Virus record (IMG/VR): IMGVR_UViG_2695420714_000014
Origin: a virus
Lineage: Duplodnaviria; Heunggongvirae; Uroviricota; Caudoviricetes
Length of the DNA: 4,059 nucleotides
Strand: one strand, 5' to 3'
Shown here in pieces: positions 2 through 4,059 of this stretch (positions within the stretch are counted from its first letter, which is position 1; each line of letters starts with the position of its first letter). The notes beneath the pieces are model-generated. The model was not told the DNA's origin. It saw only the letters and a list, made by a program, of their open reading frames with translations, and did not search any database. Made by a program: the position numbers and the translations under genes.

Positions 2-268
2 TACTCGAGGGAATTAGCCGATGCGAGAGCTGAAAATGAAACTCTGCGTGCTGATGTTGCCGCTGGTCGTAAGCGCCTGCGGATCAACGCCACCTGCTCC
101 GGTACCGTGCGTGAAGCCACCGGCACCTCCGGCGTGGATAATGCAACCGGCCCCCGACTGGCAGACACCGCTGAACGGGATTATTTCATCCTCAGAGAAC
201 GGCTGATGGCAATGCAGAAGCAACTGGAAGGAGCACAGGAATATATCCGTACCCAGTGTATACCGTGA
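2..268 (+). CDS. Rz: Rz i-spanin (inner-membrane spanin subunit), C-terminal fragment; 5' end lies outside the window
   Basis: Hand translation of the frame starting at position 2 gives ...LADARAENETLRADVAAGRKRLRINATCSGTVREATGTSGVDNATGPRLADTAERDYFILRERLMAMQKQLEGAQEYIRTQCIP*, stop TGA at 266-268. This closely matches my recollection of the lambda Rz C-terminus (...ADTAERDYFTLRERL..MQKQLEG.Q.YI..QC). Not in the ORF track because there is no in-window ATG start. Confidence 0.85.
   Translation, partial: YSRELADARAENETLRADVAAGRKRLRINATCSGTVREATGTSGVDNATGPRLADTAERDYFILRERLMAMQKQLEGAQEYIRTQCIP
21..206 (+). CDS. Rz1: Rz1 o-spanin (outer-membrane lipoprotein spanin subunit), nested in the +1 frame inside Rz
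   Basis: 61-aa ORF MRELKMKLCVLMLPLVVSACGSTPPAPVPCVKPPAPPAWIMQPAPDWQTPLNGIISSSENG. It has a signal peptide with a lipobox-like LVVSAC (Cys20) and a proline-rich mature part, and closely resembles recalled lambda Rz1 (..CVKPPPPPAWIMQPPPDWQTPLNGIIS..). GAGG at 7-10 is a plausible Shine-Dalgarno. The true start could instead be the internal Met at 36. Confidence 0.85.
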   Translation: MRELKMKLCVLMLPLVVSACGSTPPAPVPCVKPPAPPAWIMQPAPDWQTPLNGIISSSENG

Positions 269-1354: not shown

Positions 1355-1509
1355 AATGTTGCCCCGTATTCAGTGTTGCTGATTTGTATTATCTGAAGTT
1401 GCTTTTACGCTAATTTGATGCAGATCAATTAATACGATACCTGCGTAATAATTGATTATTTCTCGTGGTTTGATGGCGTACACACATGTCGTGATAAACC
1501 TCATGTAGA

Positions 1510-1524
1510 TGATAATTATTATCA
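1510..1524. promoter_or_regulatory. Perfect 7-1-7 palindrome TGATAAT-t-ATTATCA (Fur-box consensus) upstream of cosQ
   Basis: Bases 1510-1524 read tgataat t attatca, an exact match to the 7-1-7 Fur-box consensus TGATAATnATTATCA. The 17-bp span 1509-1525 is palindromic except for its central base. That the sequence matches is certain; that it is a functional Fur or other protein site is not. Confidence 0.3.
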
Positions 1525-1531
1525 TTTTCGT

Positions 1532-1538
1532 GGGTCCT
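1532..1538 (+). other. cosQ (terminase nicking-termination element)
   Basis: GGGTCCT lies 24-30 bp upstream of the cosN nick, the same sequence and offset I recall for lambda cosQ. The flanking sequence (gggtcctttccggcgatccgacaggttacg) matches my recollection of the lambda right end. Confidence 0.55.
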
Positions 1539-1556
1539 TTCCGGCGATCCGACAGG

Positions 1557-1578
1557 TTACGGGGCGGCGACCTCGCGG
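1557..1578. other. cosN (terminase nicking site), with the 12-nt cohesive end GGGCGGCGACCT at 1562-1573
   Basis: The sequence ...gacaggttacg|gggcggcgacct|cgcgg... matches the lambda cos junction as I recall it (right end ...GACAGGTTACG, left end GGGCGGCGACCTCGCGG...). Predicted nicks are top strand between 1561 and 1562, bottom strand between 1573 and 1574. The Nu1 start codon is 190 bp downstream of the left end, versus 191 in lambda. Confidence 0.85.
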
Positions 1579-1611
1579 TTTTTCACTATTTATGAAAATT
1601 TTTCAGGGAAA

Positions 1612-1725
1612 ATCGTGTCGGTACTTCTCGAATATAACTTTTTGTTTTTCTTTAATATTGCATCCGTAAAGGTCCGACATGAAAGTGTCCGAAAATGCCT
1701 TTTTCTGGCGTTTTCATGTCGGGCC
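1612..1725. promoter_or_regulatory. cosB-like terminase small-subunit binding region: three R-like repeats plus an I1-like AT-rich tract
   Basis: Related motifs at 1612-1622 (atcgtgtcggt, direct), 1671-1682 (ggtccgacatga, inverted) and 1714-1725 (tcatgtcgggcc, direct). The reverse complement of the middle site matches the third site at 11 of 12 positions. Offsets from the left genome end (~51, ~110, ~153) and the direct/inverted/direct pattern mirror lambda R3, R2 and R1. The AT tract 1631-1660 (aatataactttttgtttttctttaatattg) resembles the lambda I1 IHF-site region at the equivalent position. Confidence 0.6.
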
Positions 1726-1750
1726 TTGTATTTGATAATGGGTTGTTTTC

Positions 1751-2299
1751 ATGAAGGTTAATAAAAAGAGGCTTGCCGAAATTTTCAACGTGGACCCGCG
1801 GACGATTGAACGCTGGCAGTCTCAGGGACTCCCTTGCGCCTCCAAAGGTAGTAAGGGCATTGAATCTGTATTTGATACTGCCATGGCAATTCAGTGGTAT
1901 GCGCAGAGGGAAACTGATATCGAAAACGAAAAGCTCCGCAAAGAACTGGACGATTTGCGTGCGGCAGCGGAGTCAGATTTACAACCCGGCACCATTGACT
2001 ATGAACGCTACCGGCTCACAAAAGCGCAGGCAGATGCGCAGGAACTGAAAAATGCCCGTGAAGACGGAGTAGTGCTGGAAACTGAACTGTTTACCTTCAT
2101 TCTACAACGTGTGGCACAGGAGATTTCGGGGATACTTGTGCGTGTGCCGTTGACATTACAGCGTAAATATCCGGACATTTCACCATCACACCTTGATGTG
2201 GTGAAAACTGAAATCGCGAAAGCCTCCAATGTTTCAGCTAAGGCCGGTGAAAACGTGGGCGGGTGGATCGATGATTTCAGACGCGCAGAAGGCAGCTAA
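1751..2299 (+). CDS. nu1: Terminase small subunit Nu1 (gpNu1 homologue), 182 aa
   Basis: [106 protein letters not shown]... aligns along most of its length with recalled lambda gpNu1 (MEVNKKQLADIF...RTIQNWQEQGMP...KG.E...D.A..I.WYAERD.EIENEKLR...[29 protein letters not shown]...), including the N-terminal winged-HTH DNA-binding region. The C-terminal ~25 aa diverge from lambda. Confidence 0.95.
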
Positions 2300-4059
2300 T
2301 GCAGCCGGTGCGATAGCTACAGGGCTTTTATCTCTCATTATTCCTGTTCCACTGACGACAGTTCAGTGGGCCAATAAACATTATTACCTTCCTAAAGAGT
2401 CGTCTTATACCCCGGGGCGGTGGGAAACACTGCCGTTTCAGGTTGGCATCATGAACTGTATGGGCAACGATCTGATTCGCACGGTTAACCTGATTAAATC
2501 TGCCCGTGTTGGTTATACAAAGATGTTGCTGGGAGTGGAGGCTTATTTTATTGAGCATAAATCACGCAACAGCCTTCTTTTTCAGCCCACGGACTCAGCT
2601 GCTGAAGATTTTATGAAATCTCATGTTGAGCCAACGATAAGGGATGTTCCTGCATTGCTGGAGCTGGCTCCATGGTTCGGAAGAAAACACCGCGATAATA
2701 CGCTCACCCTGAAGCGTTTTTCCTCCGGTGTGGGTTTCTGGTGTCTGGGGGGAGCGGCAGCAAAAAACTACCGTGAAAAATCCGTGGATGTGGTTTGTTA
2801 TGACGAGCTTTCCTCGTTCGAACCGGATGTTGAAAAAGAGGGTTCGCCAACCCTGCTGGGGGATAAACGTATTGAGGGCTCTGTATGGCCAAAATCCATT
2901 CGCGGCTCGACGCCTAAAATCAAAGGCTCCTGCCAGATCGAAAAAGCCGCTAACGAGTCGGCACATTTCATGCGTTTTTATGTGCCCTGTCCGCACTGTG
3001 GGGAGGAGCAGTATCTGAAATTTGGCGATGATGCCTCGCCTTTCGGTCTTAAGTGGGAGAAGAATAAGCCAGAAAGTGTTTTCTACCTTTGTGAGCATCA
3101 TGGCTGTGTGATCCATCAGTCTGAGCTTGACCAGAGTAACGGGCGGTGGATCTGTGAAAACACGGGCATGTGGACCCGTGACGGCCTGATGTTTTTCAGC
3201 GCCCGGGGTGATGAAATTCCGCCGCCGCGCTCCATCACTTTCCATATCTGGACGGCGTACAGTCCGTTCACCACCTGGGTACAGATTGTCTATGACTGGC
3301 TGGATGCACTGAAAGATCCCAACGGCCTGAAAACCTTTGTGAACACCACGCTGGGCGAGACCTGGGAAGAGGCTGTGGGCGAAAAACTCGATCACCAGGT
3401 ACTGATGGATAAGGTTGTGCGTTACACGGCGGCGGTGCCTGCCCGGGTGGTTTATCTGACGGCGGGCATTGACTCGCAGCGAAACCGTTTTGAGATGTAT
3501 GTCTGGGGATGGGCTCCGGGAGAGGAAGCCTTTCTGGTGGATAAAATCATCATTATGGGGCGTCCCGATGAGGAAGAGACGCTGTTACGTGTGGATGCGG
3601 CGATCAACAAAAAATACCGCCATGCAGACGGAACCGAAATGACTATTTCCCGTGTCTGCTGGGACATCGGGGGGATCGATGGCGAAATCGTTTATCAGAG
3701 GTCAAAAAAACACGGTGTTTTCCGGGTGCTGCCGGTAAAAGGCGCATCTGTCTATGGCAAGCCGGTGATCACCATGCCAAAAACCCGCAATCAGCGGGGC
3801 GTGTATCTGTGTGAAGTGGGGACGGACACCGCAAAAGAAATTCTCTATGCCCGTATGAAAGCCGATCCCACGCCTGTGGATGAAGCCACGTCGTATGCCA
3901 TCCGTTTTCCTGATGATCCGGAGATTTTTTCGCAGACAGAGGCGCAGCAACTGGTCGCGGAAGAGCTTGTGGAGAAGTGGGAAAAAGGAAAGATGCGTCT
4001 GCTGTGGGATAACAAAAAGCGGCGTAACGAAGCGCTGGACTGCCTGGTGTATGCCTACG
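2271..4059 (+). CDS. A: Terminase large subunit A (gpA homologue), N-terminal 596 codons; 3' end lies outside the window
   Basis: Hand translation from ATG 2271 (frame 3) runs to the window end with no stop: [57 protein letters not shown]...[15 protein letters not shown]...VDVVCYDE...[26 protein letters not shown]...[14 protein letters not shown]...[17 protein letters not shown]...[12 protein letters not shown]...YLTAGIDSQ...[12 protein letters not shown]. It is collinear with recalled lambda gpA, and Y46, K76 and E179 fall at the same residue numbers as the lambda ATPase-centre residues. The start overlaps the nu1 stop by 29 bp, as in lambda (~26 bp). Not in the ORF track because it has no in-window stop. 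Confidence 0.95.

Follow-up and report, generated by a model that had tools for sequence, protein, structure and literature searches.

Phages lambda and 21 are the classical pair with which terminase specificity domains and cosB recognition have been mapped. Each of the two packages its own DNA more than 1000-fold better than that of the other (PMC4669245). Recognition, and with it discrimination between lambda and 21, depends on base pairs 56 and 59 of R3 and on residues 20 and 24 of TerS; E24 of lambda clashes with the G:C pair at bp 56 of the phage 21 R3 (R3-21) (PMC4669245). N15, which we compare here by its published description, has a lambda-like cosQ, cosN, and terminase family together with a simple cosB, comprising a single R3 and lacking I1, R2, and R1 (PMC4669245).

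Here, we analyze a 4,059-nucleotide stretch of DNA (the window) from IMG/VR record IMGVR_UViG_2695420714_000014. Along its entire length, the window is 99.9% identical to part of the chromosome of Escherichia coli strain S1-IND-01-A (NZ_CP145657.1), where the prophage copy is followed by a complete set of lambda-like head genes (W, portal, protease, D, E, FI, and FII). Judged by its sequence, the window is the circularized cos junction of an integrated lambdoid E. coli prophage, with lysis genes, cos, and terminase genes. The cos subsites appear in the order cosQ, cosN, I2, R3, I1, R2 (inverted), and R1, followed by gene 1 and gene 2:

1532-1538, + strand: cosQ (GGGTCCT), the packaging-termination subsite; identical to cosQ at OL657228.1 42902-42908 and to that of lambda
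1562-1573, + strand: cosN, the 12-base cohesive end GGGCGGCGACCT with flanking nick sites; identical to bases 1-12 of OL657228.1
1579-1610, + strand: I2, an AT-rich, bent segment that separates cosN from R3 (bp 18-50 of the mature left end); identical to phage 21
1611-1626, + strand: R3 of cosB, AATCGTGTCGGTACTT, putative TerS (gp1/Nu1) binding site; identical to "cosB R3" at OL657228.1 50-65
1635-1647, - strand: I1 of cosB, putative site where IHF binds and bends the DNA, flanked by R3 and R2; identical to "cosB I1" at OL657228.1 74-86
1650, + strand: an added C in the I1-R2 spacer; M81255, X02501, and OL657228 lack it
1669-1684, - strand: R2 of cosB, reverse strand TTTCATGTCGGACCTT, putative TerS site in the opposite orientation to R3 and R1; identical to "cosB R2" at OL657228.1 107-122
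1712-1728, + strand: R1 of cosB, TTTCATGTCGGGCCTTG, putative TerS binding site; identical to "cosB R1" at OL657228.1 150-166
1736-1748, - strand: I0, an IHF-like site with one mismatch to the IHF consensus, overlapping the Nu1 ribosome-binding site (1740-1743)
1751-2299, + strand: TerS gene, equivalent to phage 21 gene 1 and lambda Nu1, 182 aa; Pfam Phage_Nu1, E = 3.4e-81
2271-4059, + strand: TerL gene, equivalent to phage 21 gene 2 and lambda A, first 596 codons, ending at the window edge

The order and identity of these subsites and of the terminase genes were read from sequence identity with annotated records. Bases 1-12 of the phage 21 genome OL657228.1 are annotated as the nicking subsite, and GGGCGGCGACCT is also bases 1-12 of lambda. 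The older phage 21 record M81255 labels the cosQ bases as a putative R4, and it annotates an IHF "I2 site" at the position of the I2 spacer, whose role in lambda has been described (PMC4856287). The reverse strand of I1, AAACAAAAAGTTA, fits WATCAANNNNTTR with one mismatch. I0 has counterparts in the "IO site" of M81255 and in "IHF binding sequence 3" of X02501. Two terminator-like matches, at 1560-1575 and 1704-1723, overlap cosN and R1 and were taken as by-products.

The locus belongs with lambda-like cos and terminase systems. A Phage_Nu1 TerS and a GpA TerL lie directly downstream of cos, and both the conserved cosQ heptamer and a 12-base cohesive end are present. TerL carries the Pfam domains GpA_ATPase (E = 7.5e-57) and GpA_nuclease (E = 6.9e-69), and these matches, like that to Phage_Nu1, are all far beyond the curated cut-offs.

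The R-site repeats of the window stand out clearly from chance. The exact 9-mer TCRTGTCGG, which we used instead of the looser CATGTCGG with up to one mismatch, occurs exactly three times in the 4059-base window, at 1613-1621 (+), 1674-1682 (-), and 1714-1722 (+). Only 0.05 occurrences are expected by chance, and none of 200 shuffles reached three. The looser pattern gave a weak signal, with seven matches against 3.0 expected and 3 of 200 shuffles reaching seven. R2 is paired with R1 in an imperfect inverted repeat of 27 nt (81% complementarity). With base 1 of the cohesive end set at window 1562, the R cores of the window lie at 53-60 (+), 113-120 (-), and 154-161 (+). The CGTTTCC cores of lambda lie at 53-59 (+), 114-120 (-), and 155-161 (+). 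The offsets thus differ by at most 1 bp, and all three orientations are shared. An earlier note on this DNA, made from the letters alone, had described three R-like repeats at the lambda R3/R2/R1 offsets and in the lambda orientation pattern but with a different core, and our counts and offsets bear this out. It had also matched cosN and cosQ to lambda, and both GGGCGGCGACCT and GGGTCCT are indeed identical. A simple cosB of the N15 type was rejected: the window has three R boxes and I1, and its cosB is fully tripartite.

With lambda, the window shares its general architecture, cosQ, the cohesive end, an IHF site between R3 and R2, the protein families, and the domain order. The differences lie in the elements that determine specificity. 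The R core is of the CATGTCGG type in the window but CGTTTCC in lambda, and in the cos alignment the R boxes of the window do not match those of lambda. The recognition helix reads RTIERWQS in the window TerS and RTIQNWQE in lambda Nu1. Thus, neither the CGTTTCC core nor the RTIQNWQE helix with its E24, which mark the lambda packaging-specificity class, was found in the window. Identity to lambda Nu1 is 51% overall, 45% across residues 21-40, and 15% across residues 161-180; identity to lambda A is 67% overall, 33% across residues 1-30, and 47-80% elsewhere. The divergence that the earlier note reported in the helix, in the Nu1 C terminus, and in the first 30 residues of A is therefore real, but its description of the remainder as highly similar overstates a moderate similarity (51% and 67%). 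Its proposal that DNA sites and protein specificity domains co-vary holds: the cosB R sites, the TerS helix, the TerS C terminus, and the TerL N terminus all differ jointly from lambda.

Aligned with phage 21 rather than lambda, the same elements are nearly identical. Phage 21 was the best match in a megablast search with window 1500-2320 (98.7% to M81255, 99.6% to X02501, and 99.6% to OL657228.1). Across window 1562-4059, there are 12 differences from the phage 21 genome OL657228.1 in 2498 bases (99.5% identity). Phage 21 records annotate cosN, I2, R3, I1, R2, R1, and the I0 site, and the R3, I1, R2, and R1 sequences of the window are base-for-base the same as the sites annotated in M81255, X02501, and OL657228. 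From cosN to the Nu1 start codon, the window departs from phage 21 at a single point, the C at 1650, which lies in a T-run between I1 and R2.

The terminase proteins agree equally closely. Nu1 and phage 21 gp1 share 181 of 182 residues, among them all of residues 1-161, and the only change is A162S, a conservative substitution. All 596 residues of A are identical to gp2, with all nine nucleotide differences being synonymous. The segments through which the two subunits interact are thus cognate, with TerL residues 1-596 being those of gp2 and the C-terminal part of TerS being that of gp1 except for A162S. Residues 1-54 of TerS, the DNA-binding domain, are identical (54/54) to chain A of PDB entry 7LWR, a 54-residue molecule named "Terminase, small subunit". 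Our literature search found no paper describing 7LWR, and we use the entry on the basis of sequence identity and its molecule name.

The positions known to discriminate lambda from 21 agree with phage 21. At bp 56 and 59, R3 has G and G in both the window and phage 21, and T and C in lambda. TerS residues 20 and 24 are E and S in the window, as in phage 21, and Q20 and E24 in lambda. The window also shares with phage 21 its cos subsites, their order, and the cosN-R3 distance, while R2 and R1 are shifted by +1 bp by the C at 1650. Every feature of the phage 21 class that can be read from sequence was found, and the sole reservation is this 1-bp spacer difference. We conclude that the packaging module is essentially identical to that of phage 21, and that its packaging specificity is almost certainly that of the textbook phage 21 class. 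The C at 1650, or A162S in the C-terminal part of TerS, could in principle alter efficiency.

The earlier note had implied a new packaging-specificity class, distinct from those of lambda, phage 21, and N15. An R-site core and a TerS helix unlike those of lambda would fit such a class. However, the R sites, I1, the TerS DNA-binding domain, and the TerS-TerL interface are all identical to phage 21 except for A162S, and the lambda and 21 specificities have already been termed "well-characterized" (PMC4669245). A new class has practically no chance of being correct, and we rejected it on sequence identity with phage 21. Where the note drew on phage 21 as an analogy only, the sequence is a member of the phage 21 class itself. 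The note held that identity with an already characterized specificity class would make the feature known rather than new. With R3, I1, R2, and R1 all identical to phage 21, one difference among the 182 residues of Nu1, and none among the 596 of A, this is what we found. Comparing Nu1, A, and cosB with both phages, as the note had proposed, gave divergence from lambda and near identity with phage 21. The feature is already known: the window adds one more natural example of the phage 21 module.

The mechanism of such modules has been established for lambda and phage 21 (PMC9026076 and PMC4856287), and for the copy in the window we infer it from that work. IHF, bound at I1, would bend the DNA and bring R3 and R2 face to face. 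The winged helix-turn-helix domains of TerS would then dock as a dimer on R3 and R2 across the bend, with residues 17-24 of the recognition helix reading the CATGTCGG-type core. The TerS C terminus would hold the TerL N terminus, placing TerL to nick cosN 12 bp apart and produce the 12-base ends. The complex would stay on the cosB-bearing end, dock on a prohead, and translocate the DNA to the next cosQ-cosN. Lambda terminase would not use this cosB, nor would phage 21 terminase use that of lambda, since the bases at bp 56 and 59 of the R site and residues 20 and 24 of the helix differ in concert.

The prophage setting raises the question of whether the module is a decayed remnant, in which cos and the terminase genes no longer function. 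The window derives from a bacterial chromosome rather than from virion DNA, and many E. coli prophages are defective. However, both reading frames are intact, every cos subsite is intact, and a complete head gene set lies downstream. Across the two terminase genes, we count 10 synonymous substitutions and one nonsynonymous substitution relative to phage 21, a ratio that indicates purifying selection. Decay is therefore very improbable, and an intact phage 21-class module is the reading that we retain.

The extra base at 1650 places R2 and R1 1 bp further from R3 than in phage 21, toward the lambda offsets. To place it in context, we examined 37 IMG/VR contigs with a 21-type cosB, chosen by an exact I1-R2 pattern. 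The I1-R2 spacer has the phage 21 length in 30 of these contigs and is one base longer in the other seven (T in four, C in three). In the same contigs, the sequence from cosN through R3 is invariant in all 34 that are complete over it, and R1 is invariant in 33 of 37. The spacer thus carries a natural 1-bp length polymorphism, which looks like the product of slippage. A 1-bp change is probably tolerated (PMC4669245).

A different reading is that the module is of the phage 21 class but with an altered cosB geometry, such that packaging efficiency or IHF dependence is changed relative to laboratory phage 21. The C at 1650 would shift R2 and R1 by 1 bp, or about 34 degrees of twist, relative to R3 and so change the IHF-bent platform on which R3 and R2 are docked. 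Several observations are compatible with this. None of the three phage 21 records has the base, natural contigs retain both spacer lengths (30 without the extra base and 7 with it), and the R2 and R1 offsets of the window are intermediate between those of phage 21 and lambda. In lambda, yield and the requirement for IHF change when the spacing in cos is altered (PMC4856287 and its reference 34), but these published data concern the cosN-R3 distance and not I1-R2. Furthermore, the extra base is either C or T within a T-run, as neutral slippage predicts. We therefore regard an altered geometry as improbable, and it is likewise doubtful that the longer I1-R2 spacer is a functional allele rather than neutral slippage. 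If it were, the spacer allele would alter the helical phase of R2 and R1 with respect to R3 and thereby adjust how strongly 21-type cos sites of wild prophages depend on IHF or how efficiently they are packaged.

Modules of the phage 21 class are widespread. The 21-type cos segment is present in 599 of 5,426 complete E. coli genomes (about 11%). An exact-pattern scan of the genome contigs for the I1-R2 segment gave no match. Among the IMG/VR contigs, at least eight different right-end sequences adjoin an identical cosN-cosB21. E. coli prophages thus carry this packaging module very commonly, joined to many different right ends. In one of the IMG/VR loci (among L009-L045), unrelated sequence replaces cosN through the left half of R3, with the joint at GGTACTTCTCGAATA, as if a 21-type cos had been rearranged or truncated.

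The window is itself an example of this mosaicism. Its segment 1207-1561 is 86% identical to the lambda right end, while the right end of phage 21 matches only 1504-1561 (58 bp). To the left of cosQ, the sequence is thus lambda-like and not 21-like, which suggests a mosaic joint formed by recombination at the conserved cosQ-cosN. The genes of this part of the window are:

1-268: C terminus of Rz; Pfam Phage_lysis, E = 9.7e-37
21-206, + strand: Rz1-like open reading frame, out of frame inside Rz
734-1048, + strand: PerC-family transcriptional activator gene, 104 aa; Pfam PerC, E = 3.8e-44
1130-1354, - strand: YlcI/YnfO family (DUF3950) gene, convergent with the PerC gene

The PerC and YlcI genes occupy the interval from the lysis genes to cos, which in phage 21 holds bor and other genes. 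The place of the PerC gene is that of bor in both lambda and phage 21. In EHEC, PerC homologues encoded by prophages (Pch) are known to regulate the LEE virulence island. The 5' part of the YlcI/YnfO gene overlaps the stretch that aligns to unannotated DNA near the lambda right end. The Rz1-like open reading frame is proline-rich and has an apparent lipoprotein signal, LVVSAC (both judged by eye). It is unannotated in the 99.9% identical NZ_CP145657.1, and an "Rz1 family lipoprotein" is annotated in other genomes. Between Rz and the PerC gene, positions 268-733 are AT-rich and apparently non-coding, with long T-runs at about 540-700. The matching RefSeq chromosome has no annotation there, and the 46-codon open reading frame at 351-491 has no Pfam match.

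The value of recognizing the module lies mainly in correct annotation, and it matters little beyond that. A GTG-initiated open reading frame of 48 codons (1615-1761, + strand) lies wholly over cosB, running from R3 to the Nu1 start codon, and some RefSeq genomes have a "hypothetical protein" annotated under the cosB segment. This call is very probably a spurious open reading frame on a protein-binding DNA site.
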